32,040 nucleotides of DNA from Flavobacteriales bacterium (GCA_044344815.1 JBIJCH010000001.1:1-32040); one strand, 5' to 3'. Shown: positions 1-26,656, counted from the first letter of the stretch. Notes: a model not told the origin generated them from the sequence alone. Translations and numbers: made by a program.

Positions 1-2835
1 GCCATCCTTGTGGCGGCCGTCCCATCCCTGCCGGGCATCGTTCGTCTCGAACACCAACTGGCCCCAGCGGTCGAAGATCATCAGCTGGTGCTCCTTCTCC
101 ACCATGTCCGCCAGGATGGGGAAGAATATCTCGTTCTTGCCATCACCATCGGGGGTGAACGCGTTGGGAACGAAGAGGCTCGGCACGATGATGGGAACGG
201 GCTGGCACAGGCTGTCGGCGCAGCCGTAGCGGTCCCAGACCTGCAGGCACACATCGTAGGTGCCGCCGTAGGCGTTCTGGAAGAAGTGGTATTCCTGCCG
301 CTGATCGCCGGTGCCCAGCCCATCGAAGTCCCAGGCGAAGACCGCGGCATACGGATCGGTGGCCGAGAAGAGGATGTTGCTGTCGTCCTCCACACCGGGG
401 TTGGGCGTCCACACGAACGAGGCCTGCGGCGGGGGCTCCACCAGCACCATGCCCGGGCGGGTCAACTGGTCCACACAGCCATCGGGGGTGGTGATCGTGA
501 GCGTCACGGTGTACAAGCCGGGTGCGGCGTAGGTGTGCGGCAGCGTCCCGCATGCGTTCACCAGCGCCGATCCATCGCCCAGGGACCAGCTGCAGCTGCC
601 GCCCAGGAACCCGGGGTCGGTGAGGTTGGTGAAGGTCACGTCAAGCGGCGCGCAGCCGCTGTCCGTATCCACGGTGAACAGCACGATCGGCAGCGGGTTC
701 ACATCCACCGCCACCACGGCGGTGTCGGTGAGGTGGTCGCATGCGCCGATGCCATAGGCCACGTACAGGTAGTCGCCGGAGAGCTCAAGGGCCGGGTTCA
801 GGATGCCGTTGTGCGCACCGCCCAAGGGGTCCAGCCAGCTCTGGTTCGGGTCGGCACCTGCGCCCAACAGCGGGAACAGCGGCGTCTGTAAGCCATCGGC
901 GCAGATGGAGAGGCTGTTATCGGCCCCGGCCTGCGGCAGCGGGTCCAACGCGATGGTGAGGAGCGCCGTGAGGGTGGGGCAGGGGGCCAGCGGGGAGGTG
1001 GTGTAGGTGTAGGCTCCCGCCGCGTCCGTCGCCGCATTGAAGATGCCACCGAAGGGTGCGCCGTTCGGGTCGGTCCAGGTGCCGGTGTTGTCAGGCGTAC
1101 CGTTCAGGGTGTCCAGCATGGAGAGGGGCGGAGCGTCAGGGCACAGGCTGATGCTGTTCGCCAGACCCGGGTCCATCGCCTGCTGGATGGTCACATCGAG
1201 GAAGGCCGTGTCGTTCCAGCAGGGCGCGGTGCCGGCCACCACGTAGCTGTAAGTGCCGCTGGGGTCCACCGCAGGGTCCAGGGTGCCGCCGAAGCTGGTG
1301 CCGTTGGGGTAGCTCCACGCACCGCCCGGCTGGGGCGTGCCGGCCAGGTTCAGGAACAGGGGGTCGGTGCCGTCGGAGGTGCAGTAGGCGAGCACCACGT
1401 CCTGGCCGGCGTCCGCTGCGGCCTGGGTGCTCACGGTCACCACGCCGGTGGCGGGGCACAGTCCGCCGGTGCCCACGGCGTACAGGTAAGCACCAATTGG
1501 ATCCGTGCCCGGTACGAAGGTGCCCGAATGCGGGTTGCCGTTGGGGTCGGTCCAGTCACCGCCCGGCACCGGGGCCCCTCCCAGCAGCGGGTACAGATCG
1601 AAGGGTGGCGCCGCATCGCACACGAGCGTATCGCCCGGCAGCATGGCAGCGGCCATCTGCACCCACACCACAAGGTTGTAGGTGGCGGTGAGCGGCGGCG
1701 TGCCGTTATCGGTGGCCTCGAAGGTCACCTGGTGGAAGCCCACGTCGGCGGGGGTGGGCGTGAACTGACCGACGATCTGCGCGGTGTTCCCCGGCACATT
1801 GGTGATCACCGTGTAATTGCTGAGCGTGGGCGCGAAGGAGGTGGCCGTGGTCGTCTGGCCCGGTTCGGGGCTCAGGAACTGCATGTCGAGCTGCGAGGTC
1901 ACGCCCACGCAGGCCACCAGGGTATCGCACAGGAACACACCGCTGCCGATGGGCGGGATGTTGGAGGTGGAGACCGAGGTGGTGAACACGAAGTTCTTGT
2001 TGTCCAGCCAGCTCACCCCGTCATTAAGTCCGAACGGACCGTCATACGCCGTGCCCGGCTGGTCCGTGCGGGTGAACTGGATGAAATCGATGCCGTTGCC
2101 GCGATTGGCGCCCACGGTGGCGGGCGTGCCGCCGAAGCCGTTCACCCCGCCCGAGGCCGAGCCGGTGGTCCACTGCATGTCCTGGTAGCAGAAGCTCACG
2201 TTCTTGCCGATCCCGATCACCGGGTCGGTGCCGTCGGTAAGGATCAGCTGGAAGGTGTTCAGCATGTTCGTCTGCATGCTGAAGTAGCCCACCCCGATCC
2301 AGTTGACGTAAACGGCGGTGGGCGTCACCTTGTACCATACCTGACCTGCGCCACGGGTGTCCACATCGGCCCAGAACGGGGCCACCATGGCATAGTTGGC
2401 GCTGGGGAAGGCGCTGGAGGAGAAGGTGCCCCAGGCCGACCCGAAGGAGACGTTGCCGTTGTTGTTTATGTACAGGGCGTTGTAGGGGTCGCCGTACAGG
2501 TTGAAGGTGAAGGGGAAGGGGATGACGCCGGTGGATTGGTCGTCGTTGGGCGGCATGGCCAGGGTGTAGGTCGCATCCGGTTGGATCCAGCAATCGCACA
2601 CGTTGCCACCGCCCCGAAGATTGCCCGGGGGCGTGAAGCCGCCCCCGCCCCGTGCAAGCCCCTTGGGCACTTCGGCCGGTGGAAGGCTGAACTGCGATGG
2701 CAGCAGCCCCCGCTCCTTCAGGCGTTGGTGATCCTTGAGCTCAACGGCCTGCGGGACCGATTGGGCGGTGGATGCCTGCGGAAGGGACACAAGCCCAAGC
2801 ACCAGCACAAGACCGGAGAGTGGCAGGCGGGTCAT
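1..2835 (-). CDS. Large secreted T9SS cargo/adhesin, 3'-truncated by the window edge. Signal peptide, NIDO-like domain, four Cys-bracketed repeats, two PKD-like domains, start of a type-B (gliding-motility/CHU_C-like) C-terminal domain
   Basis: Not in the ORF track because it runs off the window. Hand translation from ATG at 2835 gives an open frame of 945 codons to position 1: MTRLPLSGLVLVLGLVSLPQASTAQ (signal peptide). NIDO-like stretch: LYINNNGNVSFG...VAPFWADVDTRGAGQVWYK. PKD-like: CAPLDVTFTNLTD...HTYAAPGLYTVTLTITTPDGC. Ends VPNAFTPDGDGKNEIFFPI...FDRWGQLVFETNDARQGWDGRHKDG, a typical type-B CTD start. Third codon positions are almost all G/C. Confidence 0.85.
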   Translation of the reverse strand, partial: MTRLPLSGLVLVLGLVSLPQASTAQSVPQAVELKDHQRLKERGLLPSQFSLPPAEVPKGLARGGGGFTPPGNLRGGGNVCDCWIQPDATYTLAMPPNDDQSTGVIPFPFTFNLYGDPYNALYINNNGNVSFGSAWGTFSSSAFPSANYAMVAPFWADVDTRGAGQVWYKVTPTAVYVNWIGVGYFSMQTNMLNTFQLILTDGTDPVIGIGKNVSFCYQDMQWTTGSASGGVNGFGGTPATVGANRGNGIDFIQFTRTDQPGTAYDGPFGLNDGVSWLDNKNFVFTTSVSTSNIPPIGSGVFLCDTLVACVGVTSQLDMQFLSPEPGQTTTATSFAPTLSNYTVITNVPGNTAQIVGQFTPTPADVGFHQVTFEATDNGTPPLTATYNLVVWVQMAAAMLPGDTLVCDAAPPFDLYPLLGGAPVPGGDWTDPNGNPHSGTFVPGTDPIGAYLYAVGTGGLCPATGVVTVSTQAAADAGQDVVLAYCTSDGTDPLFLNLAGTPQPGGAWSYPNGTSFGGTLDPAVDPSGTYSYVVAGTAPCWNDTAFLDVTIQQAMDPGLANSISLCPDAPPLSMLDTLNGTPDNTGTWTDPNGAPFGGIFNAATDAAGAYTYTTSPLAPCPTLTALLTIALDPLPQAGADNSLSICADGLQTPLFPLLGAGADPNQSWLDPLGGAHNGILNPALELSGDYLYVAYGIGACDHLTDTAVVAVDVNPLPIVLFTVDTDSGCAPLDVTFTNLTDPGFLGGSCSWSLGDGSALVNACGTLPHTYAAPGLYTVTLTITTPDGCVDQLTRPGMVLVEPPPQASFVWTPNPGVEDDSNILFSATDPYAAVFAWDFDGLGTGDQRQEYHFFQNAYGGTYDVCLQVWDRYGCADSLCQPVPIIVPSLFVPNAFTPDGDGKNEIFFPILADMVEKEHQLMIFDRWGQLVFETNDARQGWDGRHKDG

Positions 2836-2846
2836 GGTGATGGGGT

Positions 2847-3911
2847 TCAGCGGAACAGGTGGATCGTCTGGCCTTTGCTGAAGGGCTGCCCGTTGGCATC
2901 AAGCCCTTCGATCGCATAAAAATAGTAACCCTGCGGACAAGGCTGCCCGGAAAGGTCCCGGCCGTCCCAACTGTGGAGGTCGTTGGCCGAGAAGACCAGG
3001 CGGCTGTCGAGCGAGTAGATGCGCACGCGCAGGTCGGTGAGCCCCTCGGCCACCACGCGCAGGTCGTCGTTCACGCCATCGCGCATGCCCGGGCTGAAGG
3101 CGTTCGGGATCCACACCACAGGCGCTGCGGCGGCCGCTACGACCACATCGGTCTCCTCCGCCTCCGGCAGCTGCGGTTCCTGTCCGGCCACCAGGCCGGC
3201 ATCGGGCAGGCTCTCGGTCTGGGCCACCACCGGGCTGCTGGCGGTCCGCTCGATGAGCTGCTCGATGATGCGGTTCACCCGCTCCTGGTCGGAATCGGTG
3301 GCCGTGGGCCGGTCATCGTTCGTTGCGGGCGCGGAGGTCTGGGGCGTGATGCCGGGTCCGGGCATGTCCGCGTTGTTGCTGGCCTGCGGTGCGCCGGTGG
3401 TATTGACCGCGCCGGCCGTCGGGCGTTCATCGGAGGGGCTGGTGGCGGGGATCGGCGGGGCGGCCACCGCGGATCCGGTGGCCGGAGCCATCACCGTGGC
3501 GTCGGGGGCGGGTACCTCGGCAGGGGCCGGGGCGGGGGCCTCCACCACGGCAGCGGCGGTCGGTGTCTGCAGATCCTGGCCGTTGCGCAGGGTCCAGAGC
3601 AGGGCGCCGCCCGTGATCACCGTGGCGGCGAGGCCGGCCGCGAGCCAGCCGCCCATGCCTGGGCCTGCTGCGGTGCCGGCGGCGGCGCCATGGCCCAGCT
3701 GGCCGCTGATGTTGCTCCACACGCCGGGGTCCACGTTCAGCTCGTGGTCCTTGAACCGGTCCTTCAACAGCTTGGAGAGGCCGTCGGTGGGGGGCATCGT
3801 GGCCAGCTGGCCGCTGATCGCCTGCCACACGCCGGGGTCCACGTCAAGCTCGTGGCCGGAGAAGCGCTCCTGGAGGAGGTCCTTGAGGTTATCCTTCGCT
3901 GCCATCACCAT
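2847..3911 (-). CDS. Single-pass membrane protein, putative anti-sigma factor, with duplicated N-terminal motif, Pro/Ala/Thr-rich linker and a T9SS type-B C-terminal domain
   Basis: 354-aa ORF overlapping the stop of the upstream ECF sigma gene by 23 nt. Tandem N-terminal motif LKDLLQERFSGHELDVDPGVWQAISGQL / SKLLKDRFKDHELNVDPGVWSNISGQL. TM segment WLAAGLAATVITGGALLW. C-terminus WIPNAFSPG..NDDL...IYSLDSRLVFSANDLHSWDGRDLSGQPCPQGYYFYAIEG...GQTIHLFR matches the gliding-motility CTD pattern. Confidence 0.75.
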   Translation of the reverse strand: MVMAAKDNLKDLLQERFSGHELDVDPGVWQAISGQLATMPPTDGLSKLLKDRFKDHELNVDPGVWSNISGQLGHGAAAGTAAGPGMGGWLAAGLAATVITGGALLWTLRNGQDLQTPTAAAVVEAPAPAPAEVPAPDATVMAPATGSAVAAPPIPATSPSDERPTAGAVNTTGAPQASNNADMPGPGITPQTSAPATNDDRPTATDSDQERVNRIIEQLIERTASSPVVAQTESLPDAGLVAGQEPQLPEAEETDVVVAAAAAPVVWIPNAFSPGMRDGVNDDLRVVAEGLTDLRVRIYSLDSRLVFSANDLHSWDGRDLSGQPCPQGYYFYAIEGLDANGQPFSKGQTIHLFR

Positions 3912-4473
3912 AGAGTTCGGCCGCTTCCTTGGGAAGCAGGCGGCGCAGGTAGGCCCGCGCCTTCATGAATTGTGATTTCGATGTGTTCTCGCTGATGCCC
4001 AGCATCTCCGCGATCTCCTTGTGGGCGTAGCCCTCGATCGCGAACAGGTTGAACACCGTTCGGTAGCCCGTGGGGAGGGCCTGGATCAGGGCCAGGATCT
4101 CCTCGGTGGTCATGCCGCTCAGCACATGCTCGTCCTCGGCGTGCAGGTGCTCCGCATCGCTCAGGTCCACGCTGTGGTCGTAGGGCTTGTTGCGGCGGAT
4201 GTGGTCCAGGGCGGTGTTCACCATGGTCCTGGCGATCCAGCCGCCCAGCGGGCCATCCCCGCGGAAGCGGTCCATCTTCTGGAACACCTTCACGAAGCCG
4301 TCCTGCAGGATGTCCTGGGCCTGTTCACGCCCGTTCGCATAGCGCATGCAGATGCTCATCATCTTCCGCGAGTACGCCTTGTACAGCGCCTTTTGCGCGA
4401 TCGGGTCCCCCTTCAGGCACCCGGCGACCAACTGCTCGTCCGTCATGGCGTACGGGGTGATGATGCGATCCAT
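3889..4473 (-). CDS. ECF-type RNA polymerase sigma-70 family factor
   Basis: 194 aa with region 2 (DILQDGFVKVFQKMDRFRGDGPLGGWIARTMVNTALDHIRR) and region 4 (LPTGYRTVFNLFAIEGYAHKEIAEMLGISENTSKSQFMKARAYLRRLL). An alternative start MTDEQL at 4446 cannot be excluded. Confidence 0.9.
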   Translation of the reverse strand: MDRIITPYAMTDEQLVAGCLKGDPIAQKALYKAYSRKMMSICMRYANGREQAQDILQDGFVKVFQKMDRFRGDGPLGGWIARTMVNTALDHIRRNKPYDHSVDLSDAEHLHAEDEHVLSGMTTEEILALIQALPTGYRTVFNLFAIEGYAHKEIAEMLGISENTSKSQFMKARAYLRRLLPKEAAELYGDGSEG

Positions 4474-4498
4474 GGCCGAAAGGTTGCCCGGAACCCCG

Positions 4499-6431: not shown

Positions 6432-6506
6432 GAAGCGCATGCGTCAGGTGGGCAGCGTGGAGATCCCGCAGCAGGCCTTCCTGGCGGTGTTGAAGTTGGA
6501 CTAGGG
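6432..6506 (+). repeat. Copy 2 of the perfect 75-bp direct repeat (duplicated lepA 3' end), 108 nt downstream of copy 1
   Basis: 75/75 identity by direct comparison. The 33-nt spacer (6399-6431) carries a CTCGCC...GGCGAG hairpin. The stop codon of the convergent gene (6501-6503) lies inside this copy. Confidence 0.95.
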
Positions 6507-8711
6507 CAGCTGTTCAGCCCGGGTGGCCGTGGGCAACGCGCCGCCGATGTTCACCAGCACGGGGTCGCGGTCGTTCTGCGGTCCGGTGTACTTCACCACG
6601 CCGTCGAGGTTCACATCCTCCTGCCTGTAGCCGCTGTTGAAGGCCGTGGGCACCGAGCCGCCGATGGCCACAAGCACGGGGTCGCGGTCGTTGTTGGTGC
6701 CGGTGTACCGCAGTGTGCCATCGCGCAGCGCGTTGCCCGCCCACAGCACTTGCTTGCCGCTCATGGTCTTCGTGGCCCCGGAGCCGTAGGTGGTGGTGCT
6801 GTTCGTGGTGAGGTCGACGGTCACCGGCGAGGCCGTGAGCGCCACACCGGCCGCCGTCATCACGTCCAGGTGGTTCCGGTGGCGCAGCACCACGTGGTAG
6901 GTGCCGGCGGGCATGGCGAAGTTCACCGGCGAGGAGCCATCGGTGGCCACCACATCACCGTCGCGCTGGAGCAGGGCGCAGCGCGTGGCGAAGGGCACTG
7001 TCGGGGCGAGCGGCGAGCGCAGCTCCACCTGCACCCAGTCAACGATGGCGTCGTTGCCCGCAACGGAGAGCACACCGGGCGCCACGATCTCACCGCCGCC
7101 GCCGTTCACCCCGGGGAGGCCGAGGCCGGTGTACGGTTCGGCGGCCGGGATCAGCCCCTTGGTGCGCAGGCTGTCGTGCATGAGCGTGGTGGCCGCGTTG
7201 AACGGTCCTTCCAGGAAGGCGCGCACCTGGAGTTTCACTCCCGCCAGTGGCACGTTCAGGTCGGCGGTGATGGGCAGGTGGTCGCTTGCCGCGGTCGCAT
7301 CCCCGCTCTGCAGCCCCAGTGCGGCCAGCGTGGCCGGGGGCATCACCGCCGTGCGAAGGGTGAAGGACTTCGCGAGCGGCGCCACGGCGTCCGTGTACAG
7401 CAGGTGGTCGAGCAGCCCGCTGGGGTAGGCGCTGGCCGTGTTGCGCCAGGTGTACGCCATATGCGCATCGGTCTGGCGGCAGCCCGCGCGGGCCAGGCCC
7501 GAACCGTCCCAGTCCATGGCCCCGTCGGGACCGTACGTGACGTTGTCCTGGATGTCGCCGGCGATCAAGGTGGTGAGCTGCTGCGCCCATCCCACGGTGT
7601 TCAGGTCGCCGGCGTACACCATGGGCGTGCCGGCGGGCACCGTCACCACGCCCCCGGGGCTCTTCGCGTCCTGCACGAACTGCACATAGGCGTCGCACTG
7701 GGCCTGGCGCGTGGCATCGGCGGTGCAGCAGTTGAGGTGCGCGGCGGTGAAGAGCAGGTCGGTGGCGTAGGTGGCGGGCAGGTCGATGAGCGCGGGGAAC
7801 TGGCGTGAGAGACCGGGCCACGACTGCAGGATGGGCCAGCGCGAGGCGATCACCATGTCGAAGTCGTCCTTCACCACGTACCATCCCGCCCCGCCGATCG
7901 GCAGCCAGCTGTCCAACCGGGTCTTCACCTGCGCCGCCGTGCTGGTCACGCACTCGCTGAACCCGATCACGTCGGGGGCGAGGGCCGTGAGCAGCCGCTG
8001 GAACGGGCCCTGCAGCGCGCTGTTCGTGATGCCGTCGCCCAGCACGTTCCAGGCGGTGATGCGCACATGCTGCGGTTGCAGGCGCGCCACGTCGATCGGG
8101 TCCGGCGCGGGCGCGAAGGTGTTGTCGAAGGTGTAGCTGAAGGTGGTGCCGCTGTTGGGCATGGCATCCCCGCCGTCCGTCTCGCGGAAGAGGATGCGGC
8201 AGGTGCCGCCATTGAACAGGTCGTTCACGCCGTCGGGCTTCGCCGTGCGCGCGATCGCGATCTCGAAGCCGGTGGCCGTCACCGTGGGCAATGGCACCAG
8301 GTCGAGCGTGCTCCACGACACGTTCGAGCTGGCGCCGAAGTACTCCGTCACCGTGCGGGTGTCGAAGCGCACCTGCACCTCGGCCCCGTACCCGGTCTGC
8401 ACGGCCGTCCCCGTGGAGGGGTTGTTGTCGCCATCGATGTAAAGGCGGATCGTCTGGGGCACCAGGTCGTCCAGCAGGTCGATCTCGCTGCCCACGGTGA
8501 GCCGGATGTACAGGTGCTTGTCATCATTGGTGACCTGCATGGACAACAGGTCGATGCCCGTGGTGGGGGCGTTGTTGTCCGTGAACGTGGCCAGCCCCGG
8601 CGTCCAGTCTGCGAACCCCCCATCGATCACGATGGGGGCGCCCTGTGCGGAAAGCAGGCTGGGCAGAAGGATCAGGGAGAGCGGAAGGAGCGTGCGGGGA
8701 TGGAGCGGCAT
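6501..8711 (-). CDS. Secreted endonuclease/exonuclease/phosphatase (EEP) fold protein with N-terminal beta-rich domain and C-terminal Ca-binding-like DxDxDG repeats
   Basis: The ORF track lists 6501-8957. A start at ATG 8711 gives the signal peptide MPLHPRTLLPLSLILLPSLLSAQG. EEP-like motifs: VRITAWNVLGDGI, VIGFSEC, YAGDLNT, SDHLPITADL. C-terminal repeat: YTGTNNDRDPVLVAIGG / YTGPQNDRDPVLVNIGG. Confidence 0.75.
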   Translation of the reverse strand: MPLHPRTLLPLSLILLPSLLSAQGAPIVIDGGFADWTPGLATFTDNNAPTTGIDLLSMQVTNDDKHLYIRLTVGSEIDLLDDLVPQTIRLYIDGDNNPSTGTAVQTGYGAEVQVRFDTRTVTEYFGASSNVSWSTLDLVPLPTVTATGFEIAIARTAKPDGVNDLFNGGTCRILFRETDGGDAMPNSGTTFSYTFDNTFAPAPDPIDVARLQPQHVRITAWNVLGDGITNSALQGPFQRLLTALAPDVIGFSECVTSTAAQVKTRLDSWLPIGGAGWYVVKDDFDMVIASRWPILQSWPGLSRQFPALIDLPATYATDLLFTAAHLNCCTADATRQAQCDAYVQFVQDAKSPGGVVTVPAGTPMVYAGDLNTVGWAQQLTTLIAGDIQDNVTYGPDGAMDWDGSGLARAGCRQTDAHMAYTWRNTASAYPSGLLDHLLYTDAVAPLAKSFTLRTAVMPPATLAALGLQSGDATAASDHLPITADLNVPLAGVKLQVRAFLEGPFNAATTLMHDSLRTKGLIPAAEPYTGLGLPGVNGGGGEIVAPGVLSVAGNDAIVDWVQVELRSPLAPTVPFATRCALLQRDGDVVATDGSSPVNFAMPAGTYHVVLRHRNHLDVMTAAGVALTASPVTVDLTTNSTTTYGSGATKTMSGKQVLWAGNALRDGTLRYTGTNNDRDPVLVAIGGSVPTAFNSGYRQEDVNLDGVVKYTGPQNDRDPVLVNIGGALPTATRAEQLP

Positions 8712-8751
8712 GATGGGGGATGTTCCGGTCCCGGTCGAAGCAAAGGTCACG

Positions 8752-10386
8752 CTATTCCGCAGTCGCGGCCTCCAAACGGGTTGGGCGGTACACCGTGTCG
8801 GGTGTGCGCAACGGGTGCACCACGAGCAGTTCGATGAACGGCCTGTCGGTGACCACCACGCGGCCCTGCCCAACGGTGTTGCGCGCCCGCCAAGGCGTGG
8901 AGCGGATGGCCTTGATGTCCCTGCCCGTGCGGTAGAACACGGTGGCATCGGCCGCATGATCGGGATGCACCTGCACGCGGTAAGGCCGCTCGGGCACCAC
9001 CTTCACCGGACCGATGCGCTCGAAGGCCGTCCAAGGTGCGAGGTTGGCCCCCGGAAGCCCCAGGCGAAGCAGCATCCGGGCGGTATCGGGCATGGCCGTT
9101 CCAGGGGCTGTGATCCGGATGCGCAGGTCCTTCATGCGGGTGCGGGGAACGCGGATGCTGATACGGTCCACCGCGGCCTTCATCGGCTGGGCGGAAAGGC
9201 GCCGGAAGCGGCGTTGGAGGGTGTCGCGGGTCGCGACCTCGACCTCCAGCGGCCATGGCAGCGTGTCGCGGGCGATCTCCAGCAGCTCCACCGGCAGGGC
9301 GCTCGGCAGGGTGTGATGCACGGTCCACTGGCTCTTCGCCGCCGTGGACGCACGCCCCTTGCCGCCCGCTCGTCCTGGTGGCCCGGTGGTCCAGTGCGCG
9401 GTGCGTCGTTTCTCCGGGTCGGCGGCGCGCACATCGGGTCGCAGGGAGGCGCTGTCCTGGGCCACCAGGCGTGCGGACGCCTGCCAGCCACGGCGGCGCA
9501 TGTAGGAGCGCTTCTCGTTGTTGGGCCGGTCGGTCGCGTACACGGTCCACAGCCGCATCTGGTCGCGCAGGAGCGGGTCGCCCGTGAGCTCCACCAAGTG
9601 CTGGAGCTGAACGATCTGGTATTGCAGGTAGCCGGCCGTGAGCCCCCCGCCGGAGCGGTCGTACGCGCTCCACTCGGTGCGGTCGTAATGGTCCCAGCAG
9701 CGCCGGAGCGAGGCGAAGCAGCTGTCGCGCACAGCGCATGCAAGGCTGTCATCGGGGAAGCGCCGCCCGTACTCGATCAGGCCCACCAGCGCGTTCAGGA
9801 AGCCGTTGAGCACGTGGCGGTGCTCGGCGCTGTGCGGGTATTCCTCGATCCAGGTCATGCCCTCCATGGTGGTGGACCGGCAGCCGCCCTGCTCCTCGGG
9901 CAGCACCATGAACCAGGCGATGCGCCGCATCAATGGGGCCAGTGAGGTGTCGCCCGTGAGGTGCTCATGGCGCAGCAGCAGGCTCAGCGCCACCCCCTGT
10001 GCCATGCCGCTGTACCAGGGCGCCTTGTGCCGGCCGAAGTCCCAGTCGTACGGGATGGCCGTCCCTTGGCCGTCCGCCCGGCGGTCGGTGCGGGCGGTGT
10101 CCGTGAAGTACCGCACCTGGTCGCGCATCAGGTGGAACCAGGCACTGTCACCAGTGTCCAAGAAGCGCTCATAGGCCAGGATGCCGCCGGTGGCCACGGT
10201 CACCGGATGGTACCGGCCCTCGTGCAGGATGTACCCCTCGGGGCTCAGTGACCGTTCGGAGGCCCTCAACCAGCCCTCTGCGGCGAAGTGCTCGGTGAAG
10301 GAGGTGTACCGCTGCGGGGCTTGGGCACGCAGGTGACCCGCAAGGGCTGGTGCGAGCAGCAGGCATAGGAGGTGGGCGCGGACCAT
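8752..10386 (-). CDS. Secreted D-glucuronyl C5-epimerase-like protein with uncharacterised C-terminal half
   Basis: The ORF track lists 8752-10545. A start at ATG 10386 gives the signal peptide MVRAHLLCLLLAPALAGHLRAQ. KAPWYSGMAQGVALSLLLRHEHLTGD and VLNGFLNALVGLIEY resemble the C5-epimerase C-terminal domain family. 40 nt upstream of the EEP gene, so probably one operon. Confidence 0.6.
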   Translation of the reverse strand: MVRAHLLCLLLAPALAGHLRAQAPQRYTSFTEHFAAEGWLRASERSLSPEGYILHEGRYHPVTVATGGILAYERFLDTGDSAWFHLMRDQVRYFTDTARTDRRADGQGTAIPYDWDFGRHKAPWYSGMAQGVALSLLLRHEHLTGDTSLAPLMRRIAWFMVLPEEQGGCRSTTMEGMTWIEEYPHSAEHRHVLNGFLNALVGLIEYGRRFPDDSLACAVRDSCFASLRRCWDHYDRTEWSAYDRSGGGLTAGYLQYQIVQLQHLVELTGDPLLRDQMRLWTVYATDRPNNEKRSYMRRRGWQASARLVAQDSASLRPDVRAADPEKRRTAHWTTGPPGRAGGKGRASTAAKSQWTVHHTLPSALPVELLEIARDTLPWPLEVEVATRDTLQRRFRRLSAQPMKAAVDRISIRVPRTRMKDLRIRITAPGTAMPDTARMLLRLGLPGANLAPWTAFERIGPVKVVPERPYRVQVHPDHAADATVFYRTGRDIKAIRSTPWRARNTVGQGRVVVTDRPFIELLVVHPLRTPDTVYRPTRLEAATAE

Positions 10387-15368: not shown

Positions 15369-17285
15369 TCAGGCGGGCTTGAAGCGGATGTGGTAGGTGG
15401 TGCCCTTGGCGCCGGAATCCACCGTGACGAATCCGTTCAACTGCTCCACCAGGCCTTCGATGAGGCTGGTGCCCAGTGTGGCATCGTCCCCTCCCTGGCG
15501 CAACAGGTCCATGCCCACGCCGTCGTCCGCATAGAGCAGGTCAAGCTCCCCATCGGCCACGCGCCTGATGGTGAGCTCGATGCGGCCCTCGTGCCGCCCC
15601 TGGAAGGCGTGCTTGAAGGAATTGGTGATGAGCTCGTTGAGGATGAGCCCCAGGGGCACCATGGTGTTCAGGTCGAGCTGGAGCCCTGGCTCGATGTGCG
15701 TCTGATAGCGGATGGGGTCGCGCACGTTGAGCAGGCCCACCAGTTCGGCGAAGAGCTCCTGGAGGTATTGCGACACATTGAGCTGTGCGAGGTCATCGCC
15801 CTTGTACAGCCTCTCGTGGATCAGCGCCATGGAGGTCACGCGGCTCTGGGTCTGGTCGAAGGCCTGGCGCAGCTGCCTGTCCTCGATGGCGCTGCCCTGC
15901 AGGCGCAGCAGGCTGGCGATCACCTGCAGGTTGTTCTTCACCCGGTGGTGGATCTCCTGGATGAGCACGCGGATGCGGGCGTTGGCCTGTTCGAGCTTGT
16001 CCTTTTCGGCCTGGAGAGCGCGGTTCTGCTCGAGGTCGCGGGCACGGGCGGCCTTGAGGTTCTGCTGCATGCGGGCCAGGGAATGGCCCAGCACGTCCAC
16101 CTCCCCGCGCACGGACACGGGTGTGTCGTAGTTGCCTTTGCCGATGGCGTCCGCGCTGGCCGCCAGCCCGCGAATGTTGTCGATCATGCGGTTGAACGAC
16201 AGGGCCATCTGGCCCACCTCGTCCTGGCTGTTCACCGGCACATGGGCCCGCACATCGCCCTGGGCAAGGGCCGAGGCCGCCGTGGTGACCTCGTTCACCG
16301 TGTTGCGCACGCCCCGCATGATCACGTAGGTCATCAGGCCCACGGCGCCCACCACACCGATCAGGGCGGCGAGCACGATCAGCAGCCGCACCTCCGCATC
16401 GCGCTGGTTCGCCGTGGTGCTCGCGATGATGCGCTCGATGGAATAGGTCTCCACGCTGCCCAGCCGTGCGATGGCCTTCCCGCCGAGCGACCACCATTGG
16501 GCGGGAGGGGTGTGAAGGTCGCCGATGGACCGCTGCTCGAGGGCCGAACCGATGATCGTGCGCAGGTAGTTCACCTCCGGCCCCTGGAACGAGGCACGGA
16601 AGGCGGTGAGCACGTCGGAAGGCGCATCCCGCGCGAACAACAGTGTGCTCGTCTCGTACTGTGCGATCTGCTCGGTGAGCATCCCGAACGGACCGCGTCC
16701 GGCCAGGCTGTCGAGCGCCATGCGCACCACCTGCATGCGGATGTTCGTGAGGGCCTCCTTGGCCGAGAGCAGACTGAGGTGGGAGTACATCCGGTCCTTC
16801 GTCTCCGGGTCGAGCGCCAGCTTGCCCACGCGGCTGAGGTCGGCGAGCATACCAGTGCGCATCGCCCGGTAGGCCTGTTCGGCGTCCTCCGGAGCGATCC
16901 GGCGTCCGGCCACGCGTTCCCGCACCAGGCCGATCCCCTGCACCGCGTTCAGGGGACGCACCTCCCGGTCCATCATCAGCTCTTGGTCGTTGAGCGCGCG
17001 CAGGGCCGCATCGGTGCGGGCCTTCTGTGCCTCCAGCCGCACCGGGTTCATGTCCAATCCAAGCAGGTAGGCGAGCGCATGCCCCGATTCCTGCTGCAGC
17101 TCGCTCAACGCCGTGCTGAGCAGGCTGATGTTGCGGGATTGGACGTTGATGTAATTGAGCACATTGCGCCGCTTGATGCTGGAGTCGACCTGCTTGCCGA
17201 TGAGCAGCACCAGGCCCACCACGGGGATGCCGATGGTGATGAGGAACTTGGTGCGGACCGGCAGGTCGGCGAAGCGCCAGGACAT
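15369..17285 (-). CDS. Sensor histidine kinase: N-terminal NIT-like (nitrate/nitrite-sensing-type) domain between two TM helices, HAMP, HisKA_2-type phosphoacceptor, HATPase
   Basis: 638 aa. LSELQQESGHALAYLLG resembles the NIT signature. HAMP: VTTAASALAQGDVRAHVPVNSQDEVGQMALSFNRMIDNI. Phosphoacceptor: EIHHRVKNNLQVIASLLRLQ. ATPase: LILNELITNSFKHAF, DDGVGM. Confidence 0.8.
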   Translation of the reverse strand: MSWRFADLPVRTKFLITIGIPVVGLVLLIGKQVDSSIKRRNVLNYINVQSRNISLLSTALSELQQESGHALAYLLGLDMNPVRLEAQKARTDAALRALNDQELMMDREVRPLNAVQGIGLVRERVAGRRIAPEDAEQAYRAMRTGMLADLSRVGKLALDPETKDRMYSHLSLLSAKEALTNIRMQVVRMALDSLAGRGPFGMLTEQIAQYETSTLLFARDAPSDVLTAFRASFQGPEVNYLRTIIGSALEQRSIGDLHTPPAQWWSLGGKAIARLGSVETYSIERIIASTTANQRDAEVRLLIVLAALIGVVGAVGLMTYVIMRGVRNTVNEVTTAASALAQGDVRAHVPVNSQDEVGQMALSFNRMIDNIRGLAASADAIGKGNYDTPVSVRGEVDVLGHSLARMQQNLKAARARDLEQNRALQAEKDKLEQANARIRVLIQEIHHRVKNNLQVIASLLRLQGSAIEDRQLRQAFDQTQSRVTSMALIHERLYKGDDLAQLNVSQYLQELFAELVGLLNVRDPIRYQTHIEPGLQLDLNTMVPLGLILNELITNSFKHAFQGRHEGRIELTIRRVADGELDLLYADDGVGMDLLRQGGDDATLGTSLIEGLVEQLNGFVTVDSGAKGTTYHIRFKPA

Positions 17286-22476: not shown

Positions 22477-23166
22477 ATGAAGTTCGGAGTGGTCACGTTC
22501 CCCGGGTCGAACTGCGACGAGGATATGCTGCATGTGCTGGAGGCCCTCACCGGCCGGCCCGCCGAGCGGCTGTGGCACAAGGACCACGACCTGAAGGGCG
22601 TGGACATGGTGGTGCTGCCCGGTGGGTTCTCCTACGGGGATTACCTGCGCTCGGGCGCCATCGCGCGGTTCTCGCCCATCATGCAGGAGGTCGTCGCGCA
22701 CGCCAAGCGCGGCGGTCCCGTGTTCGGGGTGTGCAATGGGTTCCAGGTGCTCTGCGAGGCGGGTCTCGTGCCCGGCGCGCTCCTGCACAACGAGGGACAG
22801 AAGTTCGTGTGCCGGAACGTCCACGTCCGTCCGCAGACGCGCACCACGATACTCACCGCGGGGCTGAAGGACGTGCCGCACCGCATCCCCATCGCCCACG
22901 GCGAGGGCCGCTACCATGCGGATGAGGACACCCTCAAGCGCCTCGACGATGGCGACCAGGTGCTGTTCCGCTATTGCGACAAGGACGGCCGCATGACCGA
23001 GGCCTCGAACCCCAACGGCAGCTTGGAGAACATCGCCGGGGTATGCAACGAGGGCCGCAACGTGTTCGGCATGATGCCCCATCCCGAGCGTGCCGCAGAT
23101 GAACGCCTGGGCAATACCGACGGCCGCGCGCTGTTCATGTCACTGCTGCAGGCCGTCGTCGCCTGA
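22477..23166 (+). CDS. purQ: Phosphoribosylformylglycinamidine synthase subunit I (glutamine amidotransferase)
   Basis: MKFGVVTFPGSNCDEDM, VLPGGFSYGDYLR, GVCNGFQVL, MMPHPER (229 aa). Confidence 0.93.
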   Translation: MKFGVVTFPGSNCDEDMLHVLEALTGRPAERLWHKDHDLKGVDMVVLPGGFSYGDYLRSGAIARFSPIMQEVVAHAKRGGPVFGVCNGFQVLCEAGLVPGALLHNEGQKFVCRNVHVRPQTRTTILTAGLKDVPHRIPIAHGEGRYHADEDTLKRLDDGDQVLFRYCDKDGRMTEASNPNGSLENIAGVCNEGRNVFGMMPHPERAADERLGNTDGRALFMSLLQAVVA

Positions 23167-25212
23167 TCCGGCCTTTCCGAACACGGGCCGCAGCCTGCGT
23201 TCCCGGCCCGGCTCCACCGTGAGCACAGGGTCGTGTGCATCATCCACGCCCCAGCCGAGGAAGACCATGCCTGGCGCCGGCACGGCCGTGAACCTCATGG
23301 GTATGCCGGCCACCAAGGTCGCCCGCGTCCGTCCTGCGGCCATGGCCAGTTCTTCCACGCTGATGGTGCCCTGCGAGGCGGCAGGCACCTCGATGGTGAG
23401 CGCTGTGGTCGGTCGATGCAGCTGCCTGGCGAGCATGTGGACGAGGTTCGTGGGACGGGCCCGTGCATGCATGCGCAGTCCGGCGGTGGTCTCCTCCGGC
23501 GAAGGCCGTGGCATCTCCGTCCGCCACCGCTCCGCGTCCTGGCGCAGCATGTCCGCGTACCGGTCGTGCAGGCTGTCGATGAGCATCTCAGCGCTCGCCG
23601 GGGACAGTACCGTGAGCATCAGGGCCTCCAGCCGTGCCACGAACCGTTCGGTGAGCGCATCGCCCTGGAGGAGCCGGGGCAGGTAGGGGGCCTCCAGGGT
23701 GGAGGCCGTGCACATCCGCTCGATGCTGTTCTCCTCCGGGGGTGCCCACAGGTCCATGTCGAACACCATCCAGCGCCATCGGCCACCCGGCGTCCGGGGG
23801 CGCCAGCAGCGCACGTTGAGGTCGTGGTCGGCCCTGCCGGTGTAGGCATCGAGACAGGCCAGGTCGATCAAGCTGCCGGTATCGATCAGGCTGTCGAGCA
23901 CCGCCCAAGGCGCGCCCTCGGCCAGCGCCTTCAGGCTCCGGTCCAGGTGCCCGCGGTCGCCGCGCAGCATCGTCCCTCCCGGGCCATCGGCGAGGTCGAT
24001 GTCGGCCGTGCCATGCAGGGTGCGCACCCATGCACCGTTCTTGGGGGGCAGGATGCGGTAAAGGCCCTGGTCCCGACCGTTGAGGAGGAGCCGGCACGGC
24101 AGGCTTCGCGGGGCATCGACCCGCAGGCCGGCCCGCTGCACCACGGCCTCCACGAAGGTATTGCGCAGGAACGCATGGGGCGTGGCATCGGCACGGAGCA
24201 TCACCTCGTTCCACGCGCCGAGCCCGCGGAGCGCAATGGGCTCATCCCCACCGAAGCGGTCGCGCGCATTCAGCTTGAAGGACCGTTTGGGCGCGCTGCG
24301 GGTGCCGCTGCCGGCCACCGCCAGCCCGAGGGGGCGAACGGTGCGTGCGTCCTTGAGCCCAAACTCCACGAGGCAGGGTGCGATGCGGTCGCCCTGTGCG
24401 TAATTGGCATGGGTGCTGTCTCCGATGATGCCCCTTTCCGGGTCCCACAGGTCCGCCGGGTCGGCGGCGACCGAGATCCATGCCGATGCGGGAGGGTCCA
24501 CGGTGTGAAGGACCTCCGCGCTGGGCAGGGCGTCGGGTGCGGAGGCACGGAGCCGCAGGGCGATCGGCCCATCCATCACCGGGAGGGTGCTGAACGCCGG
24601 GCCATCGCCGGGAACGGGCGTGCCATCGATGGTGTATCGCACCACGGTGCCACCATCGGCCGGCACGTGCACCGCACCCTCCCGTTCGAGCACGGTGGGG
24701 GCGGCGAGCACACGACGCGCCCTGGCTTCGGCGGGGTTGGCGGAGCCCGGTGAGGCCTGCTCGAAGAGCCCCCAGGTGGCGGCGCCATCGGGGCAGCGCC
24801 CCATCGCCGCATCGGCGGGAAGGGATGGCCAGGTGAACAGGTCGAGCACGGTCGCGCCATCGGGGGCGATCAGCAGCAGGGTGCCGCCGGCCCGGGGGAG
24901 CCGCATCGGCACATGCGTGGGACCTTCGTTGGAGCGCCCATCGAACCAAAGGAGCTGGTGGCCCTGAGGCGGCACAGGCAGCGGCCCATTGATGCGGTGA
25001 TGATGGAGGCCGGTGGACAGGACATGGCCGGCCAGGTCGACGGGCGCGGAGCCGCTGTTGTACAGCTCTACCCAGTCGGGGTGCCCACCGCCCTGGCCGG
25101 TCACGGTGCGCTGGTTGGCAGGCTGCACCTCGTTGATGCGCAAGGCCTGGGCCCCTGCCATCACTGGAAGGAACGCGAGGAAGCGGACCAGAAGAGCGGC
25201 TCGGAGATGCAC
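23140..25212 (-). CDS. Secreted lamin-tail-domain (LTD) plus CotH-family protein
   Basis: LTD: LRINEVQPAN...HPDWVELYNSGSAPVDLAGHVLS. CotH-like: FKLNARDRFG, AFLRNTFVEAVVQRAGL, LLLNGRDQGLYRILP, WRWMVFDMDLW. The start is ambiguous. GTG 25212 gives the signal peptide HLRAALLVRFLAFLPVMAGAQA. The track start ATG 25272 would overlap the divergent gene's ATG by 2 nt. Confidence 0.7.
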   Translation of the reverse strand: MHLRAALLVRFLAFLPVMAGAQALRINEVQPANQRTVTGQGGGHPDWVELYNSGSAPVDLAGHVLSTGLHHHRINGPLPVPPQGHQLLWFDGRSNEGPTHVPMRLPRAGGTLLLIAPDGATVLDLFTWPSLPADAAMGRCPDGAATWGLFEQASPGSANPAEARARRVLAAPTVLEREGAVHVPADGGTVVRYTIDGTPVPGDGPAFSTLPVMDGPIALRLRASAPDALPSAEVLHTVDPPASAWISVAADPADLWDPERGIIGDSTHANYAQGDRIAPCLVEFGLKDARTVRPLGLAVAGSGTRSAPKRSFKLNARDRFGGDEPIALRGLGAWNEVMLRADATPHAFLRNTFVEAVVQRAGLRVDAPRSLPCRLLLNGRDQGLYRILPPKNGAWVRTLHGTADIDLADGPGGTMLRGDRGHLDRSLKALAEGAPWAVLDSLIDTGSLIDLACLDAYTGRADHDLNVRCWRPRTPGGRWRWMVFDMDLWAPPEENSIERMCTASTLEAPYLPRLLQGDALTERFVARLEALMLTVLSPASAEMLIDSLHDRYADMLRQDAERWRTEMPRPSPEETTAGLRMHARARPTNLVHMLARQLHRPTTALTIEVPAASQGTISVEELAMAAGRTRATLVAGIPMRFTAVPAPGMVFLGWGVDDAHDPVLTVEPGRERRLRPVFGKAGSGDDGLQQ

Positions 25213-25242
25213 GGGCTGTGGTGTGGGCGTCGATCGACCGCC

Positions 25243-25250
25243 TAATTTTA
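25243..25250 (+). promoter_or_regulatory. Candidate -7 box TAATTTTA upstream of the T9SS type-A cargo gene
   Basis: 20 nt upstream of ATG 25271. Its complement TAAAATTA faces the divergent CotH gene. Confidence 0.35.
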
Positions 25251-25270
25251 CGGACACGCACTGAACCACC

Positions 25271-26656
25271 ATGATCCGACACTACGCCTGTTCGTTCGCT
25301 CTGATGATCTCGCTGTCCGCAGCGGCGCAGACCATCTCCAGCGTCACCACCTCGCCCTCGGTGCTCACCGAGTGCACCCTGATCACGTTCACGATCAACG
25401 GCCAGCTCCCGGGTGGGATCTCGCCCACGAGCTTCGTTCCGGGGCCGCAGCAGGGCAACAACTTCCCGATCACGATCAATACGGGGAGCATGCCGCCGGG
25501 AGGGGCCTACAGCGTGCCCATCAACCTGGGGCCCTACCCGGCGGGCAGCTACACGTTCACCTTCTCGCTCGTGTTCCAGGGCAACGTGGTGGACACCGAG
25601 GTGATCTCGCGCACCATCAACCCGGGAACGAACCCCGATCCGGGCCAGTACGCCGAGATCGAGGCCTGCACCTCGGACCCGACGGTGCCGCTCATCTCCC
25701 TGCTCGGCGGCACCCCCGATCCCGGCGGCGTGTGGACCGACCCCTTGAACAACGTGGTGGCCAACGGCAACTTCGATCCGGGTGTCTCACCGGCCGGCTT
25801 CTACACCTACACCTTCAACGTGCTGCCGCCCTGCATCTCGGCCGCGCAGCAGCTGCTCATCACCTACCTGCCGAACAACGACCCGGGCACCCCGGGTTCC
25901 GTGCAGGTATGCGCCGCCGGTGGCGGCCCCTCCATCGACCTGTTCAGCTACCTGGGCGGCACGCCCATGATGAACGGTACCTGGACGAAGCCGGGCGGAG
26001 GGGCGCATTCGGGCACCTATGTGCCGGGTGTGGACCCGGTGGGCGTGTATACCTACTCGGTACCCGGCATCGCACCGTGCGGCCCGGCCACCGCCACGGT
26101 AACGGTGCAGGCCGTGCAGCCGCCCAACGCCGGTACGGGATCCTCGGCGCAGGTGTGTTACAATGACGAGACCGTGCAGCTCAACCAGTACATCACGGGC
26201 AGCCCGCAAACGGTGGGCATCTGGTTCGACCCGTCCAACTTCACCGTCGGCCCGTGGAACTCGGTGATCAGCGCGCTGATCTCCGACCCCGGCACCTACA
26301 AGTACGTGGTGTACGCCAACATCTGCCCGAACGACACGGCCTTCGTGGAGCTGAGCTACCTGCCGCCGCCCTGCACGCCGGGGTTCGAGGAGCTGGAGGG
26401 GGATGTGCTCCGCTTCGATCTGATGCCGAACCCCACGGACGGTGCGCTGGCGCTTGAGCTGGAGATGACCAGCACGGGTGGCCGCGTACAGGTGGATGTG
26501 CTGAACGTGAACGGCCAGGTGGTGCGCACCGAGGCGCTGCAGGCCGCGAGCTTCCTGCGGCACGACATGGACCTGGGCGGCCTGGCCTCCGGGCTGTACA
26601 CGGTGCGCCTCACCACGCAGGAGGGCCGTGCGATGCGCCGCCTGGTGGTGCGCTGA
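25271..26656 (+). CDS. Secreted T9SS cargo protein: signal peptide, Ig-like N-domain, three Cys-bracketed repeats, type-A C-terminal sorting domain
   Basis: MIRHYACSFALMISLSAAAQ. Repeats carry LLGGTPDPGGVWTDP, YLGGTPMMNGTWTKP and ITGSPQTVGIWFDP. The C-terminus LMPNPTDGALALEL...VDVLNVNGQVV...DLGGLASGLYTVRLTTQEG..RRLVV fits Por_Secre_tail. Confidence 0.85.
   Translation: MIRHYACSFALMISLSAAAQTISSVTTSPSVLTECTLITFTINGQLPGGISPTSFVPGPQQGNNFPITINTGSMPPGGAYSVPINLGPYPAGSYTFTFSLVFQGNVVDTEVISRTINPGTNPDPGQYAEIEACTSDPTVPLISLLGGTPDPGGVWTDPLNNVVANGNFDPGVSPAGFYTYTFNVLPPCISAAQQLLITYLPNNDPGTPGSVQVCAAGGGPSIDLFSYLGGTPMMNGTWTKPGGGAHSGTYVPGVDPVGVYTYSVPGIAPCGPATATVTVQAVQPPNAGTGSSAQVCYNDETVQLNQYITGSPQTVGIWFDPSNFTVGPWNSVISALISDPGTYKYVVYANICPNDTAFVELSYLPPPCTPGFEELEGDVLRFDLMPNPTDGALALELEMTSTGGRVQVDVLNVNGQVVRTEALQAASFLRHDMDLGGLASGLYTVRLTTQEGRAMRRLVVR

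Follow-up and report, generated by a model that had tools for sequence, protein, structure and literature searches.

A Dma-like putative anti-sigma factor with a type-B type IX secretion domain, encoded in an ECF sigma operon of an uncultured Flavobacteriales bacterium

Introduction

RseA, the anti-sigma factor of sigma-E, is a single-pass membrane protein with its N-terminus inside the cell; it is encoded beside its extracytoplasmic function (ECF) sigma factor in an autoregulated operon, and release is by regulated intramembrane proteolysis. FlgM, the anti-sigma factor of sigma-28, is a soluble cytoplasmic protein, which is exported in one step by the type III machine whose substrates the sigma controls. 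To our knowledge, little is known on how Bacteroidota outside Porphyromonas match the production of type IX secretion system (T9SS) cargo to the capacity of the machine. Here, an operon of an uncultured Flavobacteriales bacterium is described in which an ECF sigma gene is followed by the gene of a 354-amino-acid (aa) protein, in the following called X, and by the gene of a T9SS adhesin. X is best read as a Dma-like anti-sigma factor in which the outer membrane (OM) beta-barrel has been swapped for a T9SS C-terminal domain (CTD) of type B. The window that was analysed is an entire contig of 32,040 bp with 67% G+C (GCA_044344815.1 JBIJCH010000001.1:1-32040).

Dma proteins start with an N-terminal sigma-binding segment and continue through a transmembrane (TM) helix and a long disordered tether to an OM beta-barrel; they are encoded next to an ECF21 sigma, are found in Bacteroidota only, and in Dma1 the 40 N-terminal aa suffice for sigma binding (PMC10927553; bioRxiv 10.1101/2025.09.27.678952). 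The CTD of the PorA protein of Porphyromonas gingivalis has two roles, as a signal for secretion and as a ligand in the periplasm by which PorXY-SigP is switched on (PMC7712824, PMC12152298). CTDs of type B are not removed by cleavage, and their attachment to OM barrels of the PorP/SprF kind persists (PMC9143113). Conserved motifs within the last 100 residues, published as motifs A-E, are required for secretion of type-B substrates. These shuttles are cognate and are needed in stoichiometric amounts, and orphan cargoes share one shuttle (PMC12618676). The shuttle gene usually lies beside that of the cargo; type-B cargoes served by a distant shuttle are known. Described pairs of type-B cargo and shuttle are SprB/SprF and Fjoh_3952/3951 of F. 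johnsoniae and PG1035/PorP of P. gingivalis (PMC9143113, PMC12618676, PMC12635249).

Results

The N-terminal module of X accompanies one group of ECF sigma factors

The three genes lie head to tail on the minus strand, in the order sigma, X and adhesin. A preliminary description of this DNA, made from the sequence alone, had claimed a duplicated motif at the N-terminus of X. Direct reading of the translation confirmed two units, at residues 7-38 and 43-74, which are identical at 19 of 29 positions. The unit comprises about 31 residues (..L..RF..HE..VDPGVW..ISGQL), and a hidden Markov model (HMM) of the repeat found two units in 157 of the proteins collected. Across 16 sequences, R16, F17, H20 and W29 were invariant in unit 1, and F53, H56, D61, P62, W65, I68 and Q71-A77 in unit 2; helices were predicted by AlphaFold2 (AF2) at residues 3-17 and 26-37 in the first unit and at 45-54 and 62-72 in the second. 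An invariant QLGHGAA joins the repeats to the hydrophobic stretch that follows, and the repeat is the best-conserved region of X.

Distant matches to the N-terminal profile showed two to five tandem repeats, a TM helix and a linker, followed by one of three C-terminal ends. The module was joined to PKD and CHU_C domains in P0157, P0160, P0161, P0163, P0182 and P0185, to CHU_C alone in P0166 and P0175, and to an OMP beta-barrel (OMP_b-brl_2) in P0145, P0156, P0172, P0174, P0179 and P0180. The genes of three of these proteins (P0160, P0185 and P0145) were looked up, and each abuts or overlaps an ECF sigma gene. The sigma factors beside them are 42-46% identical to the window sigma, as against about 23% for an unrelated ECF sigma from a genome of the same kind, and the value for the partner of the beta-barrel protein P0145 is 46%. 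P0185 comes from a Crocinitomix metagenome-assembled genome (MAG) and P0145, annotated as 'porin family protein', from a Chitinophagales MAG. Profile matches to P0162, P0170 and P0177 were rejected as spurious, these being cadherin, WD40 and other repeat proteins. Directly after the gene of the PKD and CHU_C relative, a SiaC-family gene (PF09345, 127-128 aa) was observed in two loci (L027, 5981-6367; L030, 7561-7944); in L027, T9SS cargo genes for an M4 peptidase and a Por_Secre_tail protein come next.

Taken from these sequence comparisons, X is probably the cognate anti-sigma factor of the ECF sigma encoded upstream. It might instead be an envelope protein, e.g. a small accessory of the adhesin, that is merely co-transcribed while the sigma is controlled otherwise. 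Such a protein would fit the lack of any Pfam, NCBIfam or PDB match for the N-terminal domain, and also its poor model when folded alone (predicted local distance difference test, pLDDT, 56). PDB sequence searches with N-terminal and full-length X profiles returned noise only, and residues 1-85 contain neither the HxxxCxxC zinc motif of class I (ZAS-type) anti-sigma factors nor a zf-HC2 or RskA-type domain match in Pfam and NCBIfam; a ZAS-type anti-sigma factor was rejected, as the N-terminus is devoid of Cys. The repeat is, however, the most conserved part of the protein, is cytoplasm-like and is not preceded by a signal peptide. It tracks a single sigma group through three unrelated architectures with overlapping genes, and the beta-barrel architecture has been shown experimentally to be an anti-sigma factor (PMC10927553). 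Mere co-transcription is for these reasons regarded as very improbable.

X is predicted to be anchored by one TM segment and to carry a long tether

The single TM helix and the Pro/Ala/Thr linker of roughly 150 residues that had been proposed for X were both recovered. The only hydrophobic segment lies at residues ~86-108, with a Kyte-Doolittle value of 1.71 in this copy; it occupies a conserved position in all 43 members of the X family (mean 1.78), with W89 and G93 being nearly invariant. No AxA-type cleavage site was found after the segment. An internal cleavable signal peptide is ruled against by the conserved hydrophilic leader of 85 residues, which contains no cleavage motif. The puzzling topology pointed out earlier is real, as a cleavable Sec signal peptide is the norm for substrates of the T9SS (PMC12618676) but is lacking in X.

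The tether comprises about 155 aa and is rich in Ala, Pro and Thr; 68% of its residues are P, A, T, S, G, E or Q, and AF2 gave pLDDT values mostly below 60. Its length ranges from 145 to 190 aa (median 164, 42 members) despite a hypervariable sequence. An island within the tether consists of an AF2 helix at residues 206-225 followed by QTE..LP; this block has a pLDDT of about 81, and V212 and P236 are conserved in at least 90% of members. The helix is amphipathic. The island may serve for cleavage by a protease or for docking.

X ends in a separate subtype of type-B CTD

A type-B CTD had been claimed for the last ~90 residues of X, and Pfam CHU_C (PF13585) indeed matched 88 aa there with 35.5 bits (cut-off 27, E = 1.1e-8). 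The second model, TIGR04131, gave no match at E <= 0.1 in the window copy, but it did in 36 of the 43 relatives (best E 9e-11), all 43 of which match CHU_C. AF2 folded residues ~262-354 into a beta-sandwich with pLDDT values of 94-98. Foldseek searches with the full model returned generic Ig-like folds, with the T9SS cargo CTD 8gl8_D and PorU among the weak matches. No OMP barrel domain was matched in X, the C-terminus being the CHU_C beta-sandwich. The domain has the blocks PN.F.P..DG.ND, VF, W.G, G.Y.Y and G...L.R in common with the CTDs of neighbouring cargo. On this sequence evidence it is judged to be a conserved and genuine homologue of type-B CTDs.

Identities among the CTDs of X proteins are 31-73%, and those to cargo CTDs, including cargo of the same locus, are 19-36%. 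On the latter values, a recent duplicate of the neighbouring cargo CTD was rejected. A gene fusion or frameshift artefact was likewise rejected, since the architecture recurs in ~190 clusters. VRIYS stands where cargo CTDs have FDRWG, and 34 of 43 members carry Cys325 (window 2937-2939, minus strand), which in 33 is the sole Cys, while cargo CTDs almost never carry one. By these features the CTD of X is classed as a separate type-B subtype. SprF and PorG form disulfides to GldK. SprF is disulfide-linked to the moving track (PMC12635249). By analogy, Cys325 could link X through a disulfide to another protein, such as a shuttle or a track component.

The same features would suit an anti-sigma factor in which a CHU_C-like sandwich has been co-opted, independently of the T9SS, as a periplasmic sensor or oligomerisation domain. 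The failure of TIGR04131 on the window copy, the own subtype with its low identity to cargo, VRIYS and lone Cys, the resemblance to generic Ig-like folds, and the lack of both an adjacent shuttle gene and a signal peptide are all in line with this explanation. Under it, however, one would have to account for all shared type-B blocks being kept under selection in ~190 clusters, for the TIGR04131 matches in 36 of 43 members, and for a domain that is strictly C-terminal, has the usual ending and belongs to a gene that is always accompanied by type-B cargo. An independent lineage, moreover, joins the N-terminal module to PKD and CHU_C beside T9SS cargo genes. A role outside the T9SS is accordingly rated as quite unlikely.

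The locus is conserved in uncultured Bacteroidota

A whole-protein search with X yielded 45 clusters of full-length proteins (330-377 aa), each of which carries CHU_C. When the cytoplasmic part was used in an exhaustive profile search, 194 representatives at 50% identity were obtained, ~120 of which have the length of X. A word-indexed search with the N-terminal alignment returned six fragments and missed the known family, probably as a result of low-complexity words, and an indexed search with the tandem-repeat profile returned no matches. Scanning of species-representative genomes revealed 20 loci, all from uncultured Flavobacteriales or Bacteroidota MAGs. Upstream sequence was available for 22 distinct related loci, and in each of them X is directly preceded by the sigma gene. 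Across loci, sigma is 74-96% identical and X 33-56%, and the two genes overlap by 11-23 nt in five loci with called genes. Usually, lepA lies divergently upstream of the sigma-X-adhesin operon.

In locus L006 (8001-12025, GCA_016703005.1), X is split into 115 and 235 aa and the adhesin into 514, 414 and 60 aa, which looks like frameshift errors of a long-read assembly and not like gene decay; this is the one split copy, and its assembly has numerous frameshifts. Some 8 kb upstream, a second, unrelated ECF sigma gene, whose product is ~23% identical, was observed in several loci (L001, 1-1786; L005, 258-2101; also L009, L010 and L022). It overlaps the gene of a 436-452-aa partner with no Pfam match, which may be another type of anti-sigma factor.

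The sigma gene has a probable later start and a conserved promoter-like element

In the Pfam search the sigma open reading frame (ORF) matched Sigma70_r2 (62.9 bits), r4_2 (57.7 bits) and Sigma70_ECF, and TIGR02937 scored 98.6 bits against a cut-off of 42.9. The protein consists of regions 2 and 4 only, and its size is that of ECF (group 4) sigma-70 factors (~180-200 aa). Matches to NCBIfam subfamilies were obtained, the best of them below their cut-offs.

Upstream of the sigma genes, an alignment of 23 orthologous regions, otherwise unalignable, showed a common element, i.e. GGCAAC, exactly 15 nt, CGCATCAT, ~13-20 nt and ATGACGGA(C/T)GA. The GGCAAC box was present in the window and in 22 of 22 distinct related loci with upstream sequence, with an invariant spacing of 15 nt. 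Sites upstream of sigma scored 32-52 bits with a position weight matrix (PWM), and none in shuffled sequence exceeded 12. The box (G/T)GCAACC also stands upstream of related sigmas in three low-GC loci (L027, L030 and L029), once in each, and is followed 15-16 nt later by CGTTTT, CGTTTA or CCTATC. These observations fit an ECF promoter under autoregulation, with a -35 box of the AAC type known from ECF promoters.

In a PWM scan of ~450 kb, the sole other match above 12 was a site of 19.7 bits in L004. It is located at 6349 on the plus strand (GGCAAC-N15-CGCATC), 87 nt upstream of a NIDO/PKD/CHU_C adhesin gene between lepA and sigma, and hints that such adhesins may be members of the regulon.

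The sigma gene had been placed at 3889-4473. Its identity as a sigma gene stood; the start probably did not, the first 27 nt of the ORF being part of the conserved non-coding element. The CGCATCAT box was kept in the DNA even at loci with no in-frame ATG at the longer start. Several relatives have no ATG at that position, and gene callers disagree, giving products of 156-194 aa. Because these 27 nt comprise a short leader together with the -10-like box, which is conserved, translation most likely starts at the ATG at 4446 (MTDEQL..., 185 aa).

X is co-encoded with type-B adhesins

The adhesin begins with a Sec-type signal peptide, MTRLPLSGLVLVLGLVSLPQASTAQS, as read from the translation, and contains NIDO (81.8 bits), PKD_4 (56.1 bits) and CHU_C (48.3 bits) domains. 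It thus belongs to the CTD class assigned to it earlier, with TIGR04131 also scoring above its cut-off (41.8 bits, cut-off 35). The profile match ends at position 57 of 86, indicating that ~30 residues are cut off by the window edge. As close orthologues have roughly 975-1050 aa, the protein, of about 975 aa, is large and not 'giant', as it had been called. Each locus has between one and three NIDO/PKD/CHU_C genes downstream of X, the gap being 7-150 nt.

Operon layout and neighbouring genes

The coordinates of the features are listed in Table 1. Both junctions that had been described were borne out: the ATG of X sits 23 nt before the sigma stop codon, and 11 nt separate X from the adhesin gene. 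A terminator scan detected no terminator-like sites between the genes of the operon; terminator and sigma-70 promoter scans gave matches at chance level.

Table 1. Positions of the operon features in the 32,040-bp window
Feature	Position	Strand	Basis or remark
ECF sigma gene	3889..4446	-	185 aa from conserved ATG 4446; mechanical ORF to 4473
X, putative single-pass anti-sigma factor with C-terminal type-B CTD	2847..3911	-	354 aa + stop
Type-B adhesin gene (signal peptide, NIDO, PKD, CHU_C), putatively co-transcribed, cut by window edge	1..2835	-	translation, domain scores
-35-like box GGCAAC, putative autoregulated ECF promoter	4483..4488	-	conserved upstream of sigma genes
-10-like box CGCATCAT	4460..4467	-	13 nt ahead of conserved sigma start codon
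X N-terminal repeat unit 1 (helix pair, putatively sigma-binding), residues 7-38	3798..3893	-	repeat HMM, AF2
X N-terminal repeat unit 2, residues 43-74, ending in QLGHGAA	3690..3785	-	repeat HMM, AF2
X Gly/Ala-rich TM segment, residues ~86-108	3588..3656	-	sole hydrophobic stretch
X disordered Pro/Ala/Thr-rich tether, residues ~109-262	3126..3587	-	low AF2 pLDDT
Conserved island in X tether, residues ~204-237	3201..3302	-	AF2 helix, conservation
X type-B T9SS CTD, residues ~263-354, lone Cys325	2850..3125	-	CHU_C, AF2

Elsewhere in the window, a 461-aa protein with a type-A T9SS CTD (Por_Secre_tail, 38.1 bits) is encoded at 25271-26656 on the plus strand, indicating that the host has both classes of T9SS cargo. 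An 818-aa ORF at 6501-8957 (minus strand) has an Exo_endo_phos domain and C-terminal repeated units Y(T)G..NDRDPVLV.IGG..P; an internal signal peptide, MPLHPRTLLPLSLILLPSLLSAQG, probably marks its true start. Two further neighbours, a CotH-kinase-like protein that has a lamin-tail domain (23140-25272, minus strand) and a NIT-HAMP-HisKA_2 sensor kinase (15369-17285, minus strand), are unremarkable and show no evident connection with the operon.

Discussion

X resembles RseA in having an adjacent ECF sigma gene, a putatively autoregulated operon, a signal-receiving periplasmic part and, as predicted, a single pass with the N-terminus inside. It differs in lacking the class I anti-sigma signature and an RseB-like partner, and its periplasmic part is a tether with a secretion tag. 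With FlgM it would share the principle of an anti-sigma factor bearing the export signal of a machine, so that expression tracks secretion competence; X is, however, a membrane protein of which just the periplasmic tip could meet the two-step T9SS, and the two show no sequence or structural kinship. As in PorA, a T9SS CTD would double as a regulatory signal that ultimately acts on an ECF sigma. PorA, a soluble cargo, has a signal peptide that is cleaved off and a CTD of type A, whereas X is predicted to be anchored and has a type-B CTD; PorA acts via the kinase PorY and the regulator PorX on genes of T9SS components, whereas the visible target of X is cargo; and PorA is confined to Porphyromonas, while X would join CTD and anti-sigma factor in one polypeptide. 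Compared with type-B cargo, X has the same C-terminal TIGR04131/CHU_C domain with its common blocks and, like orphan cargoes, no adjacent shuttle gene. Unlike such cargo, it has no cleavable signal peptide, is predicted to stay anchored in the inner membrane, has a tether in place of the passenger domain and carries a CTD subtype with a Cys.

The closest likeness is to Dma. Both are encoded directly after an ECF sigma gene, and in both a short N-terminal segment, predicted to be cytoplasmic in X, leads through a single TM helix and a long disordered tether to an OM-directed C-terminal module; both are confined to Bacteroidota. The N-terminal repeat of X also heads proteins of Dma architecture beside a related sigma. 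In Dma the C-terminus is an 8-stranded beta-barrel and in X an 88-aa type-B CTD, so that contact of X with the OM would require the T9SS or a PorP-like barrel in trans; the cargo of the operon also differs, with NigD-type lipoproteins for Dma and T9SS adhesins for X. One N-terminal module is thus joined to an OM barrel in some proteins and to a T9SS tag in others, and the length of the tether is conserved; both points suggest a tip that has to reach the OM. We give a probability of roughly 0.55 to the joint reading in which X is an envelope-spanning, Dma-like anti-sigma factor whose CTD docks to an OM barrel in trans, forming a checkpoint circuit for secretion competence. Of the earlier proposal that an anti-sigma factor is coupled to the T9SS, the anti-sigma position, the sigma-linked repeat, the type-B CTD and the type-B adhesins in the operon were upheld by comparative evidence, and the coupling itself has the graded standing given here. 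By inference, X binds sigma, has its N-terminus in and its C-terminus out, engages the T9SS through its CTD and undergoes proteolysis; the sign of the signal is likewise inferred.

In this checkpoint circuit, the mechanism that we favour, the two cytoplasmic helical repeats of ~31 residues each would hold sigma, the Gly/Ala-rich helix would anchor X in the inner membrane and the tether of ~155 residues would cross the periplasm. The uncleaved type-B CTD at the tip would dock to the T9SS translocon or to an OM barrel of the PorP/SprF type. Sigma would drive its own promoter (GGCAAC-N15-CGCATCAT) and hence the sigma-X-adhesin operon. A working T9SS with spare capacity would capture the CTD, and since X cannot leave the inner membrane, the tether would be strained or cleaved. 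Intramembrane proteolysis, for which the Gly-rich TM segment would presumably be suited, would then free sigma and adhesins would be made; new adhesins would compete with new X for the machinery, which would close the loop. As to the trigger, motor-driven pulling on the captured tag or a stalled two-membrane intermediate might initiate cleavage, so that the T9SS directly gates the ECF sigma in the manner of the FlgM checkpoint; this part is regarded as possible but doubtful.

Several observations weigh against the envelope-spanning checkpoint, in addition to the failed TIGR04131 match and the negative searches and weak model for the N-terminus. X has no cleavable Sec signal peptide, its first 85 residues being hydrophilic and conserved, and the charges flanking the TM segment leave the topology ambiguous. 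The likeness to Dma, with its validated sigma-binding segment, is one of architecture. No PorP/SprF gene was present among the called genes within 10 kb in five loci of 16-21 kb; in the terms of PMC12618676, X and the adhesins would count as type-B 'orphans'. Cross-talk between shuttles of F. johnsoniae was seen above ~44% CTD identity (PMC12618676), and with 19-36% identity between the CTDs of X and cargo, competition for a shared shuttle is uncertain. Outside the operon, the PWM scan points to one further promoter match, that of L004, as a candidate regulon member. A chain threaded through the translocon would block it, and PorA artificially tethered to the inner membrane still signals but is not exported (PMC7712824, PMC12152298).

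The last points lead to the main competing explanation, in which X is an anti-sigma factor whose CTD never leaves the periplasm and binds a periplasmic or OM-proximal partner there, such as a free shuttle, the translocon entrance or a PorE/PorN-like protein. Occupancy would report whether secretion is free or jammed, as the PorA CTD does via PorY, and the sign of the signal could be opposite to that of the checkpoint. The PorA CTD activates PorXY-SigP from the periplasm even when tethered to the inner membrane without export; the lack of a cleavable signal peptide on X would fit, and no threading problem would arise. PorA, however, has a type-A CTD, works by a histidine kinase route and shows no sequence kinship with X. 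The conserved long tether and the parallel OM-barrel fusions suggest a tip reaching the OM, and the regulated genes that were seen are cargo and not T9SS components. A purely periplasmic ligand or backlog sensor is therefore held to be unlikely.

The preliminary description had stated that no anti-sigma factor of this type was described. For the version with a type-B CTD this held, no published description having been found in the literature searched; the statement did not hold for the general plan, which is that of Dma (PMC10927553, 2024), nor for the regulatory use of a CTD, for which PorA is a precedent. The finding is of clear interest for the fields of T9SS and ECF sigma factors. Matching of cargo to capacity weighs most for type-B adhesins, because their shuttles are required stoichiometrically. 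If the reading is true, the natural fusion of an anti-sigma factor with a T9SS tag would be a simple and testable sensor of secretion status, and T9SS function could be reported by means of the conserved promoter and the sigma/anti-sigma pair. Experiments may be feasible through the relatives in Crocinitomix, since species of this genus have been cultured. Dma would widen to a modular family in which the same sigma-binding repeat and tether are combined with interchangeable OM-directed tips, and a tag with a barrel in trans would be a second, modular answer to the problem that Dma solves by a built-in barrel. It would also follow that a T9SS CTD can act on a protein that never leaves the inner membrane.

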